From Candidatus Bathyarchaeia archaeon (lineage in GTDB: Archaea; Thermoproteota; Bathyarchaeia; Bathyarchaeales; Bathycorpusculaceae): a stretch of 64,000 bases of DNA. Where the stretch lies: contig JAVYWL010000001.1 in assembly GCA_038727135.1 (NCBI GenBank), positions 512,001 through 576,000 on the forward strand, in the 5' to 3' direction. Each line of letters opens with the position of its first letter. The first letter of the stretch is position 1. Position numbers and translations under genes: made by a program. Of the stretch, positions 42,979 to 52,521 are shown piece after piece. The notes below the pieces were generated by a model that did no database searches, was not told where the DNA came from, and saw nothing but the letters and a program-made list of their open reading frames with translations.

Positions 42979-43345
42979 GGTCTGTTCGCGAAAGAATTTT
43001 TTCTTAGAAAAGGGCTTTTACGCTTATGTGGGTTCTGGTCAAAAAAGCCTCGAAAAACGTCTTATAAGGCACTTTAGCAAGACAGGTAAAAAGCGCTTTT
43101 GGCATATAGACCACCTCCTCGCCATAAACGGCGTAAGTGTTGTAAAGGCTTTTTACAAGGAGGCTGCAAAACAAGAAGAGTGCAGAACTGCGCTAAGCCT
43201 TAGCGGTGTTGCTTTTTCAATTGATGGATTTGGTTGTTCTGATTGTAAGTGTGAAAGTCACCTCTTCCGTTTTGAAAGCTTAAGCCTCTTAGAGAATGCT
43301 TGTCTAAAGTTGGGTTTTAAGCTTTTCACCCTATCTTGCCAGTGA
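42893..43345 (+). CDS. GIY-YIG/DUF123 family endonuclease
   Basis: GVYVL, YAYVGS, WHIDHL, FGCSDCKCESHL. Confidence 0.88.
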   Translation: MKVVVCRRKGLVKGVYVLAISVSKNINVKVCSRKNFFLEKGFYAYVGSGQKSLEKRLIRHFSKTGKKRFWHIDHLLAINGVSVVKAFYKEAAKQEECRTALSLSGVAFSIDGFGCSDCKCESHLFRFESLSLLENACLKLGFKLFTLSCQ

Positions 43346-44107
43346 ATCGCCATATTGGGAGACGTCTGTTTTTTGGAGGATTTCCCTTCTCTTAACAACT
43401 TCTTCAAAGCTCATGTAGTCTCCGCCGACGATTTTCAGTTTAGCTTCAACCTTCTTATTTTTGACTTCTATAACGTTGTAGGAGTTGAGGAAGAAGCCCC
43501 TCAGCCTTTCACATGAGACGCTTCCAGCGTGAACCACCTGCATGTCTTCTATTCGCCACCTCCACGGTCTGTGGCGGTGCCCGCACAAGACTAAATCCGC
43601 CCTAGCCTTCACAAGACTTCTAAGGACGTCGCCAGCATCCACTATTGTGATTTGGTCTGCACCTGTGTCTGGAACTGGGATTATGTGGTGGTGTATTGCC
43701 ACAATTTTCACTCGGTCCTTATAATTTTCTAGGGTGTTCTCTAACCAAAGGTTTTGCCTATGACCCACTTCGCCGTCATCCCTGTCGGGGCGGGCGCTGC
43801 TCAGCACAATTATTACGGCGTCGTCGACCTCTGTTATTTGGTTGAAGGGGAAGAACTGTTTGAAAAGCAAATAACCCGTGGAACGGTAATCGTGATTGCC
43901 ACTTATGTAAATGACATTTTTGGCTTTCAAACGCTTAAACTCGTCTGCAGCCATCTTGAACTCGGATAATATGCCGTTTTCCGTTATGTCGCCAGTTATC
44001 ACCACGGCATCAGGCGACAAAGCGTTAATCTCGTCCATGGCGGTGCGGAAAATCACATAATTAAACATCGGTCCACAGTGAACATCCGAAATCTGAACAA
44101 TTAACAT
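43331..44107 (-). CDS. Calcineurin-like metallophosphoesterase
   Basis: SDVH, TGD, GNHD, HHH, GHRH. Confidence 0.92.
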   Translation of the reverse strand: MLIVQISDVHCGPMFNYVIFRTAMDEINALSPDAVVITGDITENGILSEFKMAADEFKRLKAKNVIYISGNHDYRSTGYLLFKQFFPFNQITEVDDAVIIVLSSARPDRDDGEVGHRQNLWLENTLENYKDRVKIVAIHHHIIPVPDTGADQITIVDAGDVLRSLVKARADLVLCGHRHRPWRWRIEDMQVVHAGSVSCERLRGFFLNSYNVIEVKNKKVEAKLKIVGGDYMSFEEVVKRREILQKTDVSQYGDSLAR

Positions 44108-44217
44108 GGCGTTTCGCCTTTCAAACCATGCAGAACAGCAACCAAAATAAATGTTGTGGAAATTAGAATATTCGGGCATTAAACGAAAACATGCTTGAAG
44201 AGCGTACCAAAATGAGC

Positions 44218-44239
44218 GAGGGTTGGTGTGTCTGGGTTA
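44218..44239 (+). repeat. attL core
   Basis: GAGGGTTGGTGTGTCTGGGTTA, identical to 48992-49013; preceded by the original host start ATG AGC at 44212. Confidence 0.95.
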
Positions 44240-44399
44240 GGATACCACTATTATTATTGTCATTAGTAGTGTTATTACTTATATTTTCCATCTTATTCCC
44301 TCAAATCTTATGTAGAGTAGAATAATTATTAAATTTTGTTAAAACTTATTTTTTAAGGGTATTTAAATAGGAGTAGAGATAAGAATAATATTGACCTCT

Positions 44400-44645
44400 A
44401 TGAGTAGAAAAGTAAAATTGTATGAGAGAGTGGAGCCTCCCCAAATTGTAAGACCCAGAAGAGTGGCAGAGTATGATGAACTTATTAAATCCATTGAAAG
44501 TGAACCAAAGGGATGGTATAAGGTGACAATTCCTAACAGAAAGCCTTCCACAATCTTTGTGGCTCTAGCTAAAAAACTCAGAGGTAGAAGAGACCTTAAA
44601 CTCCATTTCATAAACAAAACAGTATACATTGAAAAAATAGAATAG
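44400..44645 (+). CDS. Element small basic protein, possibly DNA-binding
   Basis: 81-aa K/R-rich ORF downstream of a TTTAAATA box. Confidence 0.65.
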   Translation: MSRKVKLYERVEPPQIVRPRRVAEYDELIKSIESEPKGWYKVTIPNRKPSTIFVALAKKLRGRRDLKLHFINKTVYIEKIE

Positions 44646-44773
44646 ATTCCTCTAATCTATATATATTAAGAGTTAAATCTAAGACAATTCCAAGTTCTAA
44701 ATAGTTACAGTACAATATAACAGTAAGGTTTAAAAGCCACTATACTACTTCTTGTACTACTTGGTGATAGGGT

Positions 44774-45418
44774 ATGTCTGATTCAAATATATTGTACCAT
44801 AAATCAAGAGATTGCATTATTGCCTCTAACTTTATTGAAGACCTTCCAATGAATTTGTCTGACTTAGAACAAAGAGCTATAGTAATATCAGCATTGGAAA
44901 AGCTAAAACAAAGTTTGAAAAATACTGATGTAATAACAGACATAGATATTCAGACTATTAGGCTTTATTGTTCTAAAATATTGGATTTAATAGATTATTT
45001 AGAAAAACAAAATAGTGAAAGCTATACGAAACTTATCAAATATCTAAAGGATACATTGAACATTTTAGAAGAATATATAAGAAGCTATTACCATAAGGTG
45101 GAAGCACTCCCAGAATATTCTAGATATGAAAAAGAGTACTGGGGAAGATATTTTACTGACAAGGATTATTATCCACCTTCTTATTATTACTGGAACAAAT
45201 ACACATCTAAAAGTAAACCCATCTTTAAATATATTGATAGAATTACTGGTAAATTAGAATTGACTGAAGAGGCTAAAGATGCAATATTCAGGGAAATAAC
45301 TGTACCTGACAGTAGAAAATACATTTGGGACAGACCTGAAATGACATTTGAGGAATTGATGCAGTATACTTTGGAAAAGTTACAAGAAAGACCAATGAGC
45401 TTAGGTCTAAAAGATTAG
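44774..45418 (+). CDS. Element hypothetical protein (may extend to 45531 through a frameshift)
   Basis: 214-aa ORF with upstream GGTGA RBS; no recognisable motif. Confidence 0.7.
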   Translation: MSDSNILYHKSRDCIIASNFIEDLPMNLSDLEQRAIVISALEKLKQSLKNTDVITDIDIQTIRLYCSKILDLIDYLEKQNSESYTKLIKYLKDTLNILEEYIRSYYHKVEALPEYSRYEKEYWGRYFTDKDYYPPSYYYWNKYTSKSKPIFKYIDRITGKLELTEEAKDAIFREITVPDSRKYIWDRPEMTFEELMQYTLEKLQERPMSLGLKD

Positions 45419-45532
45419 AACTTGAGGCTAAAGAACAACAAGAATTATCCCAAGACCCTTTACATGAAAAGATGGAATTTCTACTAAATGTTTGGTTACC
45501 TTGGGAGAAAAAGAGAATGGAGGAACAGTAAA

Positions 45533-45817
45533 ATGTCTAGGGAAATAGAACACATTAGTCTCCTACAGTTATTAAGTCACAATCCCTTAACACTAGGAGA
45601 GTTAGCTAAGCTAACTTGTGTTAATTCTGAAGCTAAACTCAATGTAATCCTAAACAAACTTGTCAAAAGAGGCTTTCTTGTAAAGTCTAAGACTATAGAT
45701 AATAGGAATCAATATATTATTACTTCTAGAGGATTGCTCTATTTATTCTACAAAATTATGGATAGGAAATTAAAAGAAGGTGATACCTATGTCACAGAAT
45801 CTAGAACAAACCCTTAA
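45533..45817 (+). CDS. Element winged-helix protein
   Basis: LSHNPLTLGELAKLT...LNVILNKLVKRGFLVK...YIITSRG; GGAGG RBS. Confidence 0.75.
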   Translation: MSREIEHISLLQLLSHNPLTLGELAKLTCVNSEAKLNVILNKLVKRGFLVKSKTIDNRNQYIITSRGLLYLFYKIMDRKLKEGDTYVTESRTNP

Positions 45818-46169
45818 ATCTCTAGAGGAAAGGATTAAAGAATTGGAGACTAAGTTTAAGGCTTTATCCTCTATCTTAGGTGAATATGTTGCACAACTAC
45901 AAGTTCTAGAGGAATCTCTAGTTAATACTAGAAATATTAAGAACACTATGACATTAGAAAAGAACAGTCTAGATTCCTATGCATATGATACTCAAGGAAC
46001 AACACCTAGAGAAAGACACATTGAACCTTCTATTCCACTATCTTCTCTAGCATTTGCTACTATTGAAGACTATGAAACTCCTACAGATGAATTGAAAAGA
46101 AAAATAGCTAATGTAGCAGAGCTTATAATAAAGACTGGTAACAAACTAGACTACATAAGTGCAAGATGA
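45789..46169 (+). CDS. Element coiled-coil protein
   Basis: LEQTLKSLEERIKELETKFKAL heptads; GGTGA RBS. Confidence 0.7.
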   Translation: MSQNLEQTLKSLEERIKELETKFKALSSILGEYVAQLQVLEESLVNTRNIKNTMTLEKNSLDSYAYDTQGTTPRERHIEPSIPLSSLAFATIEDYETPTDELKRKIANVAELIIKTGNKLDYISAR

Positions 46170-46215
46170 CAAAAATAGGGGGACTTCATCTTGTCCCCAT
46201 ATCAAGGTGGTGCCT

Positions 46216-46881
46216 ATGTCCCAACAAGTTAAATATGATGGAATGACTTTATTAAGATTTCCAGAACCTAAAAGAGATTATTGCTACAATGTTGGTAGAC
46301 TTAAAGAAGTGTTGGTTTCAGATTTGTCTGATGATATTCTCAATGATTTAGCAGAATTGCACTTTACATTGAAAGATAAGAATGCTGATGTTGTCTATAC
46401 AAAGACTAATTTAGCTCTTGAAGTTATGAATGTCTATAAACCTATACTGGATTATACTAGAATTAGAAGAATAAAGTCTAATCTTAAAGGATATAAATAC
46501 AAAGGCATCATAGTCTCAAGAATGTCTAAAGCCATGAAAAGAAGACTAAAAGGCATTCCTATCTTAGAACTTGGTTTCCAATTGCTTCCTTCTCATTATA
46601 TTTCCTTCTATAGTAGTAGACATTCCACTAAATATAGAAAATTTGTTAATAAGAGGACTATTAAGTATCTAGTTAACTGCCTATATTCTTTCTTTTTGAA
46701 GATTGGAGCTATTAAAAAGACTGTTTCCTCTAATAAGCCTAAATCTAGTTATGTAAATTCTATAGTAAATTCAAGGTTTAGTTTTAGGATAGACAATGTT
46801 AGGGATATTGTTGAAGACTTTTTGGAATATGTTTATCCATGGTTTTTAGAGGAGAGGGTAGGGTGGTTGTATGAAGGTTAG
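46216..46881 (+). CDS. Element hypothetical protein, possible PD-(D/E)XK fold
   Basis: NADVVY...LALEVMN pattern, weak match. Confidence 0.55.
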   Translation: MSQQVKYDGMTLLRFPEPKRDYCYNVGRLKEVLVSDLSDDILNDLAELHFTLKDKNADVVYTKTNLALEVMNVYKPILDYTRIRRIKSNLKGYKYKGIIVSRMSKAMKRRLKGIPILELGFQLLPSHYISFYSSRHSTKYRKFVNKRTIKYLVNCLYSFFLKIGAIKKTVSSNKPKSSYVNSIVNSRFSFRIDNVRDIVEDFLEYVYPWFLEERVGWLYEG

Positions 46882-46914
46882 CAGAGTAGCCTAGTTGAAT
46901 TCTTCAATGTACCA

Positions 46915-47223
46915 GTGGTAACTCTAAAAGATATCAAACAAGACCCTAAAATAGAATTTAATTGTTACTGCTGCACTAAGTCTAGATACTGTAGCAAATT
47001 CCAAGACTTTCTTGTTCTAAGAGAGAAGCTAAAAGGAATGAAACAATTAGCTTTGGATAGCAATATAATCAAAGCAAAAGAGGACTATAAACACTTGTTA
47101 AGGGAACTAAAGAAGGTAAGAAGTCTAATATGGAAATGTACAAGAAGAAGAACCTTTCTATTTGGACTAGGCTACAAGACATTTAGAATAGGTGGTATAG
47201 ATGAAAGAAGATGTAGAAGTTAA
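46915..47223 (+). CDS. Element Cys-containing basic protein
   Basis: CYCCTKSRYC...WKC. Confidence 0.6.
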   Translation: MVTLKDIKQDPKIEFNCYCCTKSRYCSKFQDFLVLREKLKGMKQLALDSNIIKAKEDYKHLLRELKKVRSLIWKCTRRRTFLFGLGYKTFRIGGIDERRCRS

Positions 47224-47533
47224 AACTGTTACTAAAGGAGTGATAGCAGGATTTACTAAATCCATAAATAGGATTAACAGATTAATAACTAAGAATCCTA
47301 AAAAGAGGAGTTTGATAAGAAGGTTAGAGAGAATTGGTAAATGCAATAATTGTAGTAGACCCTTTCAATTGGGTGAACAGTTCATACAAGTAGGACACAA
47401 TAAGTATCACTTAGAATGCTACAATAAAGCATTTCTAGAAGTACCTGATGACTTTACTCCAGAAGAGACATATTTTATAGAATATGGTACTATTCCATCT
47501 TATATAGTAAATACAGACAGTAAACACACATAA
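47201..47533 (+). CDS. Element zinc-finger protein (C-x2-C-x18-H-x2-C)
   Basis: CNNCSRPFQLGEQFIQVGHNKYHLECY. Confidence 0.7.
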   Translation: MKEDVEVKTVTKGVIAGFTKSINRINRLITKNPKKRSLIRRLERIGKCNNCSRPFQLGEQFIQVGHNKYHLECYNKAFLEVPDDFTPEETYFIEYGTIPSYIVNTDSKHT

Positions 47534-48084
47534 TGTAATAGAGTCAAACCCTCTCCTCTTTTTCTCTTCTCTTTTTACTTTTGTTTCCTTTTGACCATAA
47601 CCAAACCATAGGTTAGAACATAGACAGAGCCTATCTATGGAGATTTTTGTCAGTTCTTTTATAGGGTCTTGAAAAACTCCATTACTTATTTAGGATATAT
47701 CTAGACTAATCTAGAAACATAAAGAATAAAGAAAGACAAAAGGAAAAGCCAAAAGAAAACATAGACAAGACTCAAATTCTTTGTTTTTAAAGCACATTTT
47801 TATCTCTTATAGATTAGTGTAAGTGTATAGATAACACACATTTAACATTCAAAATAGAACATAGTGGAAGTGTGTTAAGGACATAGCCATTTAAGCCTAA
47901 CCTATGGTTTATATCACACATTAAAAGGTCTATTTTGTATTGACTTGGATTCTAGACAAATTGAATTAGACAAATTAGACCTTAAACATGCCTTAATCTG
48001 GATTCTAAATAGGTGATTGGACCTAAACAAGGTGAAATATATTCGAATTGTATAGAATGTAGAAAAATAGAGGATATGGAAAAG

Positions 48085-48984
48085 CTATTTCCTTTTCCTA
48101 AAGAGCATTATGTTATCAAAGGTTGTAACATAGTCATAGCCTTGTTCTATCAGACTTTTAGCTTCCTCTATTGTTTTAGCTACTGAACATACCCATTCAT
48201 TCTCATTGAAATTGACAAGGTGTGTGTAGATGAGAGTGTTTTGAATGGAGACATGACCTAGAATTTCTTTAACATACAAGATGTCTCTGGTTTTGTAGTA
48301 GGTCATAGTAGCTTTAAAATGTCTAAGACTTCTTAGAGTAATCATGTTTATTCTTGGATTTCCAAGTTTCTCAGCTATTTGTTTCCTTTTCAGTCTTAAT
48401 CTATCAGCAAAGTCTTCTAGTTTACTCTTATCATTATGTTTGAAGATGTAGATACTTACTCTAGGCAATTGATTCAACATAGCAATTGTCTGATTGGAAA
48501 CTTTAACTATCCTAGCCCTACTACCCTTAGCTGGATTATTAATTATTATAGTGTTGTTCTCAGTATTAACATCAGACCATTTAAGATTCCAAGCTTCTAT
48601 TGGTCTAGCTCCAGTATCCTTGATTACCTGACAGAAGGCAGCATACTTTAGACTTAAGCCTCCAATTAGAGCATTGATTTCACTTTCTAATGGTACAAAT
48701 GGAAGTCTATTGGTTCTCTTGTACTTTGGCTTTTCAAAGTTTATCCCTAGATATTGACAGTACAGAGCATAAGCATCTACAAGCTTCTTCTTGTAACTGT
48801 CAAGGTTCTTATTGGATATGAAAGCCTTAACCTCTTCAACATTGTTCAAGTCTACATGTTTACCTAAGTGTTTCAGAGCATAACCAATGGTTCTTAAAGT
48901 TGATTCCTTGTAGCCCTTGTTCTTAAGGTCAATGAGTAGGTTTATGATATTCTGGTTTTGTTGTTTAGAGAGTGGGTAACTCAT
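48085..48984 (-). CDS. Tyrosine recombinase/integrase
   Basis: TGARPIE (R), PAKG (K), RSLRH, LGH, TLIY (catalytic Y); abuts attR. Confidence 0.95.
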   Translation of the reverse strand: MSYPLSKQQNQNIINLLIDLKNKGYKESTLRTIGYALKHLGKHVDLNNVEEVKAFISNKNLDSYKKKLVDAYALYCQYLGINFEKPKYKRTNRLPFVPLESEINALIGGLSLKYAAFCQVIKDTGARPIEAWNLKWSDVNTENNTIIINNPAKGSRARIVKVSNQTIAMLNQLPRVSIYIFKHNDKSKLEDFADRLRLKRKQIAEKLGNPRINMITLRSLRHFKATMTYYKTRDILYVKEILGHVSIQNTLIYTHLVNFNENEWVCSVAKTIEEAKSLIEQGYDYVTTFDNIMLFRKRK

Positions 48985-48985
48985 T

Positions 48986-49537
48986 ATGGTTGAGGGTTGG
49001 TGTGTCTGGGTTACAGGGTTGCCGGGGAGCGGCAAGTCTGTTGTAGCGGAGACGCTTATCAAGTTTTTGCTTCAAAGGGGCATCCGCGCTCAACTTTTGT
49101 CTTCTGACGCTTTGCGTAAGGTTTTGACTCCTAAGCCAACATACTCGCTTGAGGAACGCGACATAGTTTACGCAACTCTTGTCTACATCGCTAAATTGCT
49201 AACGCAGAACGGTGTAAATGTTGTTATTGATGCCACTGGCAATTTGAGGCGTTATAGGGATAATGCCCGAAACCAAATCCAAAAGTTCATGGAAGCCTAC
49301 CTAGAATGCCCGCTTGAAATCTGCATTGAACGCGAATCCCGGAGGGCTGATACCCGCCAAGCGCCAAAACAAATCTATAAAAGAGCCTTGAAAGGCGAGG
49401 CGCCCACAGTACCCGGTGTTGGACAACCCTACGAGCCCCCACTGAACCCGGAAATAACAGTGAATACCGCCGAGTGCACGCCGGAGCAAGCAGCCCATAA
49501 AATACTTGAGGTTATTATTGGCAAGTGGTACGCCTAA
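48986..49537 (+). CDS. Adenylyl-sulfate kinase family P-loop kinase (integration target, restored)
   Basis: WVTGLPGSGKS, DALRK, YLECPLE, YEPPLNPE. Confidence 0.88.
   Translation: MVEGWCVWVTGLPGSGKSVVAETLIKFLLQRGIRAQLLSSDALRKVLTPKPTYSLEERDIVYATLVYIAKLLTQNGVNVVIDATGNLRRYRDNARNQIQKFMEAYLECPLEICIERESRRADTRQAPKQIYKRALKGEAPTVPGVGQPYEPPLNPEITVNTAECTPEQAAHKILEVIIGKWYA
48992..49013 (+). repeat. attR core
   Basis: GAGGGTTGGTGTGTCTGGGTTA, identical to 44218-44239. Confidence 0.95.
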
Positions 49538-49682: not shown

Positions 49683-50696
49683 ATGGGTCACCGGAAACAG
49701 CACGGTCCAAAACGCGGTTCGCTTGCCTATTTGCCTAGGAAACGGGCTAAAAGCCTTTTGGCTAGAATACGCTATTGGCCAAAAATTGAGGCCGAAACGC
49801 CTAGGCTTCTTGGTTTTGTTGGTTATAAGGCTGGCATGACCTACGCCATGGTGATTGAAGATCGGAAGCGTTCCCCAAACGTTGGGAAGGAGGTAATCCG
49901 CCCAGTCACTGTTTTGGAAACTCCGCCCCTTCTTATTTGTGCCATAAGAGCCTATAAGAAAACGCCTTATGGACTGCAAACTTTTTGTGAAGCTTGGATG
50001 GAAAAACCGCCCGAAGGGCTTGATAGAGTTTTAACCCTTCCTGAAAAATTTAACACCGAAGAGAATTTGAAAAAAATTGAGGCTAATTTAGACAAAATCT
50101 CAAACATTCGCGTAATAGCCATAACCCAACCCAAGCAAACAAGCGTGCCGAAGAAAAAGCCAGACGTAGCCGAAATAGAGATAGGTGGAGGAACAATTCA
50201 GCAACAATTTGAATACGCAAAAAGTCTGTTAGGAAAAACCGTGAACCCCTCTGACGTTTTCAAGGAAGGGCAACACGTAGACGTAATAGCCGTCACAACC
50301 GGAAAAGGTTTTCAAGGACCGGTAAAACGTTGGGGAGTAGCCATCCTCCAACACAAGGGTAGGAAAACAAAGCGGGGAGTCGCCACCCTTGGTCCATGGA
50401 ACCCCCACCGTGTGCTGTACACTGTCCCACGCGCCGGGCAAATGGGCTTCCATCAAAGAACAGAATATAACAAGCGGATTTTGAAGATAGGCAAAGATGG
50501 CAAAGAAGTAACACCGAAAGGCGGCTTCATACGTTACGGCATCGTCCGCGGACCCTACATGCTCATAGAGGGAAGCATACCGGGACCGGAAAAGCGTCCA
50601 ATTAAACTGCGTTATCCGGCTCGTCCGCCAAAGGAAGCCCCAGAAGAGCCCCCACAGATAACGTATCTATCCTTAGAGTCTCCGCAGGGCAAGTAG
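49683..50696 (+). CDS. rpl3: 50S ribosomal protein L3
   Basis: GYKAGMT, GKGFQGPVKRWG, GQMGFHQRTEYNK. Confidence 0.97.
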   Translation: MGHRKQHGPKRGSLAYLPRKRAKSLLARIRYWPKIEAETPRLLGFVGYKAGMTYAMVIEDRKRSPNVGKEVIRPVTVLETPPLLICAIRAYKKTPYGLQTFCEAWMEKPPEGLDRVLTLPEKFNTEENLKKIEANLDKISNIRVIAITQPKQTSVPKKKPDVAEIEIGGGTIQQQFEYAKSLLGKTVNPSDVFKEGQHVDVIAVTTGKGFQGPVKRWGVAILQHKGRKTKRGVATLGPWNPHRVLYTVPRAGQMGFHQRTEYNKRILKIGKDGKEVTPKGGFIRYGIVRGPYMLIEGSIPGPEKRPIKLRYPARPPKEAPEEPPQITYLSLESPQGK

Positions 50697-50711
50697 GAAC
50701 GGTGAAAGTTT

Positions 50712-51500
50712 ATGGCTAAAACGGTGAAAGTCTTCGACCTCAACGGAAAACCCGTTGGAAAAATCAAACTTCCGCCAATCTTTGAAACACCCATAAGGCC
50801 AGATGTCATAAAACGGGCAGTCTTAGCCATACAGTCAACAAGATTTCAGCCGCAAGGCAGAGACCCGATGGCTGGAAAAAGAACATCAGCAGAATCAAGG
50901 GGCGTAGGCTTAGGCATAGCGAGAATACCAAGAATTAAAGGACCTGTTGGAAGAGGTGCCTTCGCACCCGGAACCGTCGGTGGTAGGCTGGCGCATCCGC
51001 CAACTCCAGAGAAAAAGATTGTTAAACGTATTCCAAAAAAGGAGAAGCGGTTAGCTCTTTTCTCCGCCATAGCCGCCACTGCCTCTAAAGAAATGGTGGT
51101 TTCTCGGGGACACGCCATTGAAGGAGTACCACAAATCCCTCTCGTCGTCACAGACGAGCTTGAAAGCCTGAAAAGGACTAAGGATGTTGAAGAAGCCCTC
51201 ATAAAGCTCGGCGTTTTAGCCGACTTGTATAGGGTTAAGGAAAGCGTGAAAGTCAGGGCTGGAAAGGGGAAAATGAGGGGGCGAAGAATAAAACAGGCTG
51301 TTGGACCATTAATAGTTGTGGCTGAAGACAAAGGCGTGGGCGAAGCTGCAAGGAACATACCCGGCGTTGACGTTGTTCCAGTTAGGAGTTTGAATGCTGA
51401 GGTTCTCGCGCCCGGAACACATCCTGGAAGATTGACAATTTGGACAGCCAGCGCCATAGAAACCCTCGACAAGCTTTATTGCAGAGGTGAGGAAGCCTAA
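50712..51500 (+). CDS. rpl4: 50S ribosomal protein L4
   Basis: [31 protein letters not shown]. Confidence 0.97.
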
Positions 51501-51760
51501 TGGACCCTTATGAGGTTATACTTTACCCGTTGATGACGGAATCCGCCAGCCTAATGGTTGAGAGGGAAAACAAACTGGTCTTCATAGTCAACCTAAAAGC
51601 CACAAAGGAGGACGTGAAAAGGGCTGTTGAAGAGCTTTACGAAGTTAAGGTTGAAAAAGTAAACATTGTTATAACGCCTAAAGGGCAAAAGAAAGCCTTT
51701 GTTAAGCTCCATCCAGATTATAAGGCTACGGATGTCGCCATAAAGCTTGGAATACTATAA
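51500..51760 (+). CDS. rpl23: 50S ribosomal protein L23
   Basis: [15 protein letters not shown]. Confidence 0.96.
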
Positions 51761-51777
51761 TTTGTGTGGTGAAAGTT

Positions 51778-52521
51778 ATGGGAAAGAGGATTCGTGTCCA
51801 AAGGCGTGGGCGCGGCGGACCAACCTTTAGAGCGGCAACCCACAAGAGAGTAGCTCCGGCATGTTACCCGCCAGCAACAAAAGAAATCTTCGACACTGTA
51901 ACGAGGGGGGTTGTTGAGGAACTCCTTCACGACCCGGGAAGAGGCGCCCCCCTAGCTCTAATAAGATTTGAAAATGGGGAAGAATGCTACACGGTGGCTC
52001 CTGAAGGCGTATACACTGGACAGCAGATACAGATGGGCGGGAAAGCAAGCATCGAGGTTGGCAACATTCTGCCAATTGGTAGAATTCCAGAAGGCACAAT
52101 GGTCTGCAACATAGAGCTTAAACCCGGAGACGGCGGAAAAATCGCAAAATCTTCAGGCGCATACGCCACCATTGTGGCGCACACGGCACAGGGAACCCTA
52201 ATAAAGCTGCCCTCTGGCAAAACCAAGTATATTAGCGATCATTGCAGAGCCACAATAGGCGTTGTTGCTGGTGCCGGCAGGACAGAAAAGCCGTTCTTAA
52301 AGGCTGGTGCAAAATTCCACCTAATGAGGGCAAGAGGAAGAAAATATCCGAGAACCCGTGGAAAAGCGATGGTTGCGGCAGTCCACCCATATGGAAGCAG
52401 CAAAAGAAGTGCGCGGAAAGTTACAACTGTTTCGCGGAACGCCCCGCCTGGAAAGAAGGTTGGGCTTATAGCGGCTAGAGGCACTGGGCGGAGAAAGAAG
52501 AAGGTGAAGGAAGGCGAGTAA
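51778..52521 (+). CDS. rpl2: 50S ribosomal protein L2
   Basis: MGKRIRVQRRGRG, HDPGRGAP, GLIAARGTG. Confidence 0.97.
   Translation: MGKRIRVQRRGRGGPTFRAATHKRVAPACYPPATKEIFDTVTRGVVEELLHDPGRGAPLALIRFENGEECYTVAPEGVYTGQQIQMGGKASIEVGNILPIGRIPEGTMVCNIELKPGDGGKIAKSSGAYATIVAHTAQGTLIKLPSGKTKYISDHCRATIGVVAGAGRTEKPFLKAGAKFHLMRARGRKYPRTRGKAMVAAVHPYGSSKRSARKVTTVSRNAPPGKKVGLIAARGTGRRKKKVKEGE

Follow-up and report, generated by a model that had tools for sequence, protein, structure and literature searches.

How can a mobile element enter the very first codons of a protein-coding gene and leave that gene readable? This question is raised by a locus in a 64,000-nucleotide stretch of DNA, here called the window, from a Candidatus Bathyarchaeia archaeon (assembly GCA_038727135.1, contig JAVYWL010000001.1, positions 512,001 to 576,000), in which a 4.8-kb island interrupts the 5′ end of a gene for a cysC-like kinase. 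The genome of the window is denoted G000; other G and L numbers denote the genomes and loci with which it was compared. The observation as first described, comprising a repeat, an island and two start codons, is confirmed, and the island is a real, precisely bounded site-specific integrative element. With high probability, these 4,774 bp constitute a minimal member of an undescribed element family with a common gene module, and the start of the kinase gene was restored upon integration.

Boundaries of the element and the start of the kinase gene

The ends of the element are formed by the exact 22-bp direct repeat GAGGGTTGGTGTGTCTGGGTTA, hereafter the core, which is found on the plus strand at 44218-44239 (attL) and 48992-49013 (attR). 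The element is 4,774 bp long, with boundaries at 44218/44240 and 48991/49013, and 4,752 bp lie between the two cores. The guanine-plus-cytosine (GC) content of this inner part is 32%, compared with 45% and 49% in the flanks, which are Bathyarchaeia chromosome. A search of the window for the core with up to three mismatches returned exactly the two known copies, a count reached by none of 100 shuffles, and the same two are the only copies in the whole 1.55-Mb assembly. The core encodes the residues E-G-W-C-V-W-V, corresponding to kinase codons 3-9 plus one nucleotide, in the strand before the P-loop. Its left copy is preceded by ATG AGC (44212-44217) and its right copy by the element-supplied Met-Val codons ATG GTT (48986-48991, plus strand), both in frame. 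According to the sequence-only reading, the repeat covers the first codons of the kinase (EGWCVWV), ATG AGC stays behind at attL (44212), ATG GTT is provided at 48986 and the kinase is separated from its native promoter; the coordinates and frames agree with this description, and the distance to the native promoter is 4,774 bp.

The reconstituted target gene (48986-49537, plus strand) encodes a P-loop kinase of 183 amino acids (PF01583, 8.6e-31, 107.5 bits versus a cut-off of 21.1). Its score against the NCBIfam equivalog TIGR00455 is 121.2 bits and remains below the cut-off of 138.7, for which reason the protein is termed APS-kinase-like. The kinase frame has no possible start before ATG GTT, which the kinase needs because these codons precede the strand before the P-loop, in keeping with the earlier claim of a replacement start codon. 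The accompanying claim of a serine-to-valine change at residue 2 is correct with respect to the stranded start of this genome but not with respect to the genus norm, for which the change is G2V, since the empty sites in relatives read ATG GGC or TTG GGC and not ATG AGC.

The left host flank contains a gene for a calcineurin-like metallophosphoesterase on the minus strand (43331-44107; PF00149, 1.6e-17), followed by the native intergenic or promoter region, which includes the stranded native kinase start (44108-44217, plus strand). This native upstream region is identical in 58 of 60 nucleotides (nt) to the sequence directly upstream of the ATG GGC of genome G005. By prediction only, integration has also created a chimeric open reading frame (ORF) of 37 codons (44212-44325, plus strand), composed of the native start, nine kinase codons and a hydrophobic element-encoded tail (maximum KD19 3.08). 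All cargo genes of the element point in the same direction as the native kinase promoter, which precedes this chimeric ORF. On the right, the kinase gene is directly followed by an operon (49683-52521) that looks ribosomal-protein-like (L3, L4, L23 and L2-like) by eye from the ORF translations, and the element therefore adjoins a highly expressed core region. The predicted attP reads ...CTCATTATGGTT-core-GGATACCAC....

Empty sites are found in relatives as well as in metagenomes. A full-length kinase orthologue is present in 10 of the 13 other genomes of the genus, and eight of these ten possess an empty site consisting of the phosphoesterase flank, ATG or TTG GGC, the core and the kinase. In G005 the left flank (to 44239) and the right flank (from 48986) map in abutting positions with a 28-nt overlap, representing a clean attB. 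Of 66 kinase loci from the class, 59 contain the core with at most four mismatches, and an integrase within 7 kb upstream of the kinase occurs in no other locus. The phosphoesterase is located approximately 105-120 nt upstream of the kinase start in divergent orientation in 19 of the 66 loci, and that arrangement is therefore ancestral. The label of the sequence runs that have words in common with the region is hot springs metagenome. Contigs from three of these runs (X1, X2 and X4; two studies) join 44217 to 48992 with 22 letters common to both sides, one such contig of 290 nt showing 8 differences from the window. These empty sites substantiate the claimed integration into a protein-coding gene. 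The anticipated junction in relatives, ATG AGC joined to the kinase, was found, a start codon being joined to core and kinase, except that the second codon is GGC.

Integrase and cargo module

At the right end of the element the minus strand encodes a XerA-like tyrosine integrase of 299 amino acids (48085-48984), recognised by PF00589 (59.7 bits versus a cut-off of 27.1) and phrog_1 (3.5e-26); the archaeal XerA model scores below its cut-off. In the alignment with XerA entry 5hxy (1.5e-12) the motifs TGARP, LRH, LGH and IYTH are in register and the Arg, Arg, His and Tyr catalytic positions coincide, the first His of HxxR being replaced by Arg; we take the aligned Arg, His and Tyr residues to play the corresponding roles in integrase catalysis. 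The integrase ATG is situated 8 nt from the core and at a distance of 1 nt from that of the kinase on the opposite strand. Once the element is integrated, only kinase coding sequence is found upstream of the integrase start; the integrase promoter would therefore lie across att in the circular form, leaving the integrase uncoupled from its promoter when integrated. The circular form would also contain an in-frame 27-codon extension of the integrase across att, for which there is no conservation support. An SSV-type split integrase is not present, as the 299-residue ORF is whole when integrated and has no PF16795 match.

Integrases of this family are abundant in the host order, where 264 of 301 genomes contain a match at E<=1e-10, often in several copies and in many genomes with at least seven matches. 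The best non-self match is 51% identical, and many matches are located at contig ends. This abundance and the contig-end positions suggest a large uncharted mobilome. Twenty loci around close homologues were examined with a crude exact-repeat search. In five of them (L125, L126, L127, L128 and L138) repeats of 25-45 nt adjoin the integrase start and bound AT-rich insertions of 4.0-7.9 kb, while this search gave no repeat of at least 17 nt in the other 15. ARAGORN places a tRNA gene on the repeat in four of the five, namely tRNA-Cys in L125 and L128 and tRNA-Leu in L127 and L138. The integrases of the five elements are 42-48% identical to that of the window (BLASTP) and are all that they have in common with the window element, apart from ORF84 in L128. 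L138 (G003:C7), 7.9 kb long and located at tRNA-Leu, combines a window-type integrase with an 823-residue Prim-Pol (PF09250, 28.1 bits), a protein not present in the 4-5-kb elements; it is a plasmid-like relative by its integrase only. Judged from these homologues, the window element uses a common Bathyarchaeia integrase type that normally targets tRNA genes, its target being the unusual part.

The cargo consists of seven ORFs on the plus strand. ORF84 (44400-44645), the first module gene, encodes a small basic protein without family match and has homologues at the same position in L128 (39% identity, 8e-19) and L173 (31% identity, 4e-10). It is followed by the frameshifted ORF214 family gene (44774-45531) for a Tyr-rich, helical protein, whose homologues comprise 252-253 amino acids, and by ORF109 (45533-45817), a putative winged-helix DNA-binding protein with sub-threshold matches only (MarR 7.9e-4, ORF80_fam 0.0065, Sulfolobus_pRN 0.018). 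ORF129 (45780-46169) encodes a coiled-coil protein with a positional counterpart (o100) in L173, L174 and L175, the sequence similarity of which to the window copy is not significant. The best-conserved cargo gene belongs to the ORF240 family (46216-46881), and the N-terminal domain of its product follows the pattern E...G-x-D...E-V-x-N...NL...KYKG...ELGFQ-x-LP. ORF102 (46915-47223), a small Cys-rich protein, has no relatives among the compared loci. The last module gene, ORF110 (47201-47533), encodes a zinc-ribbon-like protein, whose homologues in L173 (1e-13) and L174 immediately follow that of ORF240.

Between ORF110 and the integrase, a non-coding region of about 550 bp (47534-48084) contains a polypyrimidine tract and inverted repeats, one of them with perfect 14-nt arms at 47603-47616 and 47897-47910; by its position it is a candidate origin or regulatory region. 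Contigs of higher depth from runs X2 and X4 contain a 32-nt stretch of it (47765-47796). This stretch was considered as a CRISPR (clustered regularly interspaced short palindromic repeat) spacer match and rejected, the contig flanks being unlike the window and unlike each other. Rfam has no match in 44000-49200.

The same gene order recurs in L173, a metagenome contig (1-11400) with an element of approximately 11.2 kb that is bounded by a 31-nt repeat covering the 5′ part of tRNA-Asp. Homologues of ORF84 (4e-10), ORF214 (3e-4), ORF240 (4e-24) and ORF110 (1e-13; all BLASTP) follow one another as in the window, with a coiled-coil ORF in the place of ORF129; its other cargo includes a clostripain-like peptidase, a radical-SAM-like protein and a beta-helix protein. 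The integrase of L173 is of the SSV type (PF16795), its ORF running through the tRNA-derived repeat and being split by integration. Parts of the same ORF84-ORF110 module are found in L174 and L175. From this synteny, ORF84, ORF214, ORF129, ORF240 and ORF110 form a module that defines an element family with exchangeable integrases, of which the window element is a minimal member. Most relatives in the module family target tRNA genes. The earlier proposal of a new family finds support insofar as other uncultivated elements contain the same conserved five-gene module.

A full HMMER search returned 81 representatives of the ORF240 domain at E<=1e-3, and in many of these the domain forms the N-terminus of proteins of 350-490 amino acids without Pfam domain. 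The ORF240 family occurs in 7 of 401 sampled Bathyarchaeia genomes, G000 and six genomes from five other families. In four of these loci the genes lie in AT-rich islands, three of them next to tRNA genes and two with an integrase of either type, and G354 (L179) harbors a further ORF240-family locus with a window-type integrase. The interval 5900-11400 of L179 (G354:C30) contains two tandem window-type integrases, each after a 44-nt near-identical, palindrome-containing repeat, as well as a multi-pass membrane protein, a beta-helix protein and the ORF240-family gene. Close homologues of ORF214 and ORF240 (60-92% identity) are all located on contigs of 1.1-6.5 kb binned to unrelated archaea; two of these carry both homologues at matching spacing, and the 92% ORF240 homologue and the 76% ORF214 homologue are encoded on public contigs of 5,389 nt and 6,502 nt. 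Such contigs look as mis-binned episomes would.

For the seven cargo ORFs nothing above threshold was obtained in Pfam, PHROGs, NCBIfam and PADLOC, as expected from the earlier statement that no Rep, primase, capsid or conjugation gene is recognisable. Searching ORF240 with tblastn gave 0 matches in 72,556 plasmid or 50,697 phage records, scans of IMG/VR and JGI metagenomes with the ORF214 alignment yielded no relative, and the Protein Atlas returned only unnamed clusters at 0.90 or below. The motif order of ORF240 fits PD-(D/E)xK nucleases, but the Lys is replaced (E-V-W/M/L-N). Comparison of the ORF240 family with the lineage's own Hjc by hhalign is not significant (probability 0.25%), and a PDB profile search with the family gave nothing. 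Sub-threshold Pfam matches occur in at most five of 43 family members (BsuBI_PstI_RE in 3, Mrr_cat in 1, DUF6602 in 1; overlap not checked).

Origin, probable decay and alternative explanations

The mechanism is ordinary tyrosine-recombinase integration with restoration of the target gene. The integrase would have recombined the 22-bp attP core with the identical sequence at kinase codons 3-9, a target stretch conserved across the class, much like a tRNA gene. The element's own ATG GTT, located just outside the core, would have rebuilt the frame at attR as Met-Val-Glu-Gly-Trp..., whereas the native promoter, the native start and the duplicate core would have been left 4.8 kb upstream at attL. 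The element itself would be cryptic and plasmid-like or helper-dependent, with no recognisable replicase. Silent divergence between G000 and its sister genome G003 is 0.30, while the two cores are identical; by this estimate the insertion is therefore younger than the split, or the element cycles in and out.

The genomes G003 and G004 (loci L024 and L025) deviate from the empty sites described above. Neither contains an integrase at the kinase site; instead, an insert of 2.0 kb or 2.5 kb with 39% GC is located between phosphoesterase and kinase and encodes a secreted NosD/beta-helix protein of 618 or 789 amino acids. Both genomes lack the native start, its 57-nt native promoter region and the attL core, and their kinases begin with ATG GTT, like that of the window. 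The 8 bases before this start in G003 (aactcatt) match those of the element exactly; in the element they include, on the opposite strand, the start codon of the integrase. The attR-type junction aactcattATGGTT-core is present in G003 and also as a loose end in run X1, and the junctions of the G003/G004 allele are seen in all four runs X1-X4. When the 120 nt preceding the kinase starts of G003 and G004 are aligned freely (local alignment) with the integrase 5′ region, the similarity is not significant (z 0.9 and 0.7); a scar is therefore argued from the anchored identity of 8 bases plus GTT in G003 and from the cargo gene. Three independent module loci have such beta-helix genes among their cargo (L173, G354 with its window-type integrase, and G021). 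Judged by these shared features, a related element was probably once inserted in G003 and G004 and decayed, leaving ATG GTT and one beta-helix cargo gene behind. In the tree of the right flank G000 and G003 are sisters (100/100), and G004 is placed several nodes away with empty-site genomes in between; the inserts of G003 and G004 are 87% identical and their flanks 85%, i.e. about equally diverged. Recombination between lineages or repeated events are therefore indicated.

In three loci from other genera (L077, L079 and L098), sequences about 25 nt upstream of the kinase start (...gatgggtaac..., ...gagtgcgtaact...) resemble the element's ...gagtgggtaactcatt. The alignment of the L098 upstream sequence with the integrase 5′ region has a z of 3.7, and L077 and L079 are similar by eye. 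Either these are further scars or the element mimics a native motif.

The ratio of non-synonymous to synonymous substitution rates (dN/dS) of the kinase is 0.049 for G000-G003, 0.064 for G000-G004 and 0.070 for G003-G004, compared with 0.049-0.087 in six other pairs, four of them empty-site and two mixed (G000-G001 and G000-G005). On these rates the kinase remains under purifying selection, and because the ATG GTT kinases share the low dN/dS, a kinase with element-type codons has stayed under selection over a long divergence. It would still be expressed from element-derived sequence. In G000 the gene directly upstream is the integrase on the opposite strand, and the kinase promoter would have to sit within the 5′ part of the integrase coding sequence; transcription in G003 and G004 could come from an upstream gene on the same strand. 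A sigma-70 promoter scan found 20 promoters versus 19.8 expected, hence no enrichment, and the sigma-70 model does not apply to archaea.

A wider reading combines these observations: a module family would swap its integrase and att modules, one lineage would have been re-targeted from tRNA genes to the kinase codons, and decayed insertions would have permanently replaced promoter, start and second residue and donated a beta-helix gene in G003 and G004. The window would then catch in progress what has run its course in these two sister species. We propose this reading only tentatively, its probability falling slightly short of even.

Several results weigh against the interpretation as an integrative element of a module family. 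Within the seven-contig assembly there is no excised circular copy and no second copy of the element. The junction check suggested by the sequence-only reading succeeded for the empty attB joints but not for attP, which is missing among the 15 of 24 joints listed (low-depth diverged relatives); no metagenome contig bridges the attL or attR junction of this assembly. No run had more than 23% of the element's words, the element being matched only by low-depth diverged contigs. The ORF214 family occurs in one of 332 host-family genomes, G000, and an element with this cargo only there. Rep, capsid and conjugation genes are not recognisable in the cargo, and no replication function was found. Structure prediction, proposed for all ORFs, was carried out for ORF240 and the ORF214 family only, and the AlphaFold2 models (predicted local distance difference test scores of 34 and 58, respectively) are too poor for a fold search. 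A CRISPR link, also proposed, did not materialise: the matches of the element DNA in the 332 host-family genomes are mostly to the integrase, and none of 8 short high-identity non-integrase matches lies in a repeat array. Finally, the ORF214 gene is shifted in frame by 1 nt within a short run of A near 45390, and a different frame encodes the last 47 residues, which the homologues conserve; either decay or a consensus error may be the cause. The frameshift in a conserved gene, the lack of an attP joint among those listed and of a circular contig, and the ORF240-family pseudogenes in G021 and G687 would suit a fixed, decaying insertion that has lost the ability to excise. This explanation is nevertheless unlikely, as the cores are identical where about three changes would be expected by estimate in a neutral attL core if the insertion predated the G003 split, the integrase ORF is intact with its catalytic Tyr, and near-identical empty sites coexist in metagenomes. 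An assembly artefact, in which the chromosome and a free circle of the element became connected in silico through the shared 22 bp, is barely conceivable. The window does originate from a metagenome-assembled genome, and the absence of bridging contigs is compatible with a false join, but the two junctions match reciprocally and in register, final assembly k-mers are typically longer than a 22-bp overlap, and the attR-type junction was found independently in G003 and at the loose end in run X1.

The module could also encode unrecognised virion or packaging proteins, or the element could be packaged by a helper virus, as are pSSVi and pSSVx in Sulfolobus. In favor of such a provirus or virus satellite, the larger relatives carry secreted beta-helix (NosD/pectate-lyase-like) proteins, L173 possesses the SSV-type split integrase with PF16795, and close homologues reside on tiny contigs binned to unrelated hosts; a spindle-type provirus of Bathyarchaeia with a polysaccharide lyase is described in the available part of PMC10541130. 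It appears rather improbable, however, given that none of the seven cargo ORFs has a PHROG match at E<=1e-3, that the coding strand contains no hydrophobic ORF of at least 30 amino acids resembling a Fuselloviridae-like two-helix capsid protein except the chimeric attL peptide, and that neither the 50,697 phage or virus records nor, with the ORF214 alignment, IMG/VR gave a match. Equally to be considered is a regulatory switch, in which integration silences the kinase, excision restores its expression and ATG GTT is incidental. A kinase 4,774 bp from its native promoter, behind an integrase on the opposite strand that cannot feed it by read-through, has a bacterial precedent in SpyCI in mutL of Streptococcus pyogenes (in the accessible part of PMC4701971). 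We regard the switch as quite unlikely, because the element keeps an in-frame ATG exactly at the native position, and because the kinases of G003 and G004 are intact and begin with ATG GTT in spite of having lost native promoter and start (dN/dS 0.07 at dS 0.88), a counterpoint weakened by the upstream same-strand gene that could drive them. The interpretation preferred here remains that of a site-specific integrative element which restored the kinase start.

Significance and relation to known elements

Little of the mobile-element content of the Bathyarchaeia, an abundant and uncultivated group, has been charted. In a survey of their viruses, as far as its available text goes, proviruses of at least 5 kb were screened and 54 of 56 contigs encoded capsid proteins (PMC10541130); given this size limit and capsid bias, elements like that of the window would therefore be missed. 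Genetic tools or polymerase chain reaction assays for these archaea could start from a bounded minimal element whose attP and attB are predicted, and the five-gene module, present in at least five host families and with no function assigned, is a target for structure and function work. The locus further provides an archaeal example of 5′-end integration into a protein gene with an element-supplied start codon, and, to judge from the sister genomes, insertions of this kind may become fixed and rewrite the 5′ end of a host gene. If re-targeting and decayed insertions are true, this would amount to mobile-element-driven rewiring of the 5′ end of a core gene in archaea.

Within the Bathyarchaeia, the window element resembles the five mini-elements described above in size, AT-richness, the integrase at one end and an att that abuts the integrase start. 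It differs from these elements, four of which coincide with a tRNA gene, in its target and, apart from the ORF84 shared with L128, in its unrelated cargo; the Prim-Pol replicase of L138 has no counterpart in it. The small integrative plasmids of Sulfolobales (pRN family, pSSVi) comprise 5-8 kb and combine an integrase with small DNA-binding regulators. The window element shares with them its size, an integrase and the weak sub-threshold Sulfolobus_pRN and ORF80 matches of ORF109. It differs in that its integrase is not of the SSV type, no significant sequence relationship was found, and no window ORF matches a pRN-type RepA (Prim-Pol plus helicase; largest ORF 240 amino acids).

In Thaumarchaeota, according to the part of PMC6563490 at hand, 14 of 68 integrated elements are located in protein-coding genes, all of them 3′-distal, and NitEve-E2 supplies a new stop codon for its target gene. 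In the sense in which the term is used there, the window element is a cryptic integrated element, having an integrase and att but no matches to virus, conjugation or casposon hallmarks. It shares with NitEve-E2 the tyrosine integrase, a short att, the lack of hallmark replication or virion genes and the substitution of the displaced gene end; contrary to that kind of element it hits the 5′ end and replaces the start together with the whole upstream regulatory region, and host class and cargo differ as well. No report of archaeal 5′-end integration into a protein gene was found in the literature searched; supplements such as Table S2 of PMC6563490 might list one.

The position of the insertion is paralleled in streptococci. 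In the accessible text of PMC4701971, 7 of 73 integrative and conjugative elements with tyrosine integrases are inserted in the 5′ end of ftsK, rbgA or ebfC, the N-terminus being rebuilt and in some cases the promoter replaced, and SpyCI in mutL acts as a switch. Like these systems, the window element employs a tyrosine integrase at the conserved 5′ end of a housekeeping gene and rebuilds the N-terminal coding sequence. As far as that source describes them, the streptococcal elements are bacterial and, apart from SpyCI, large and conjugative, whereas the window element has no conjugation genes, and the conjugative elements leave the N-terminus unchanged, whereas here residue 2 is changed. An element-supplied start codon at a 5′ end is accordingly known in bacteria, to the extent covered by this source. 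New are the target, i.e. the first codons of a protein gene with its start replaced, the host class and the conserved cargo module.

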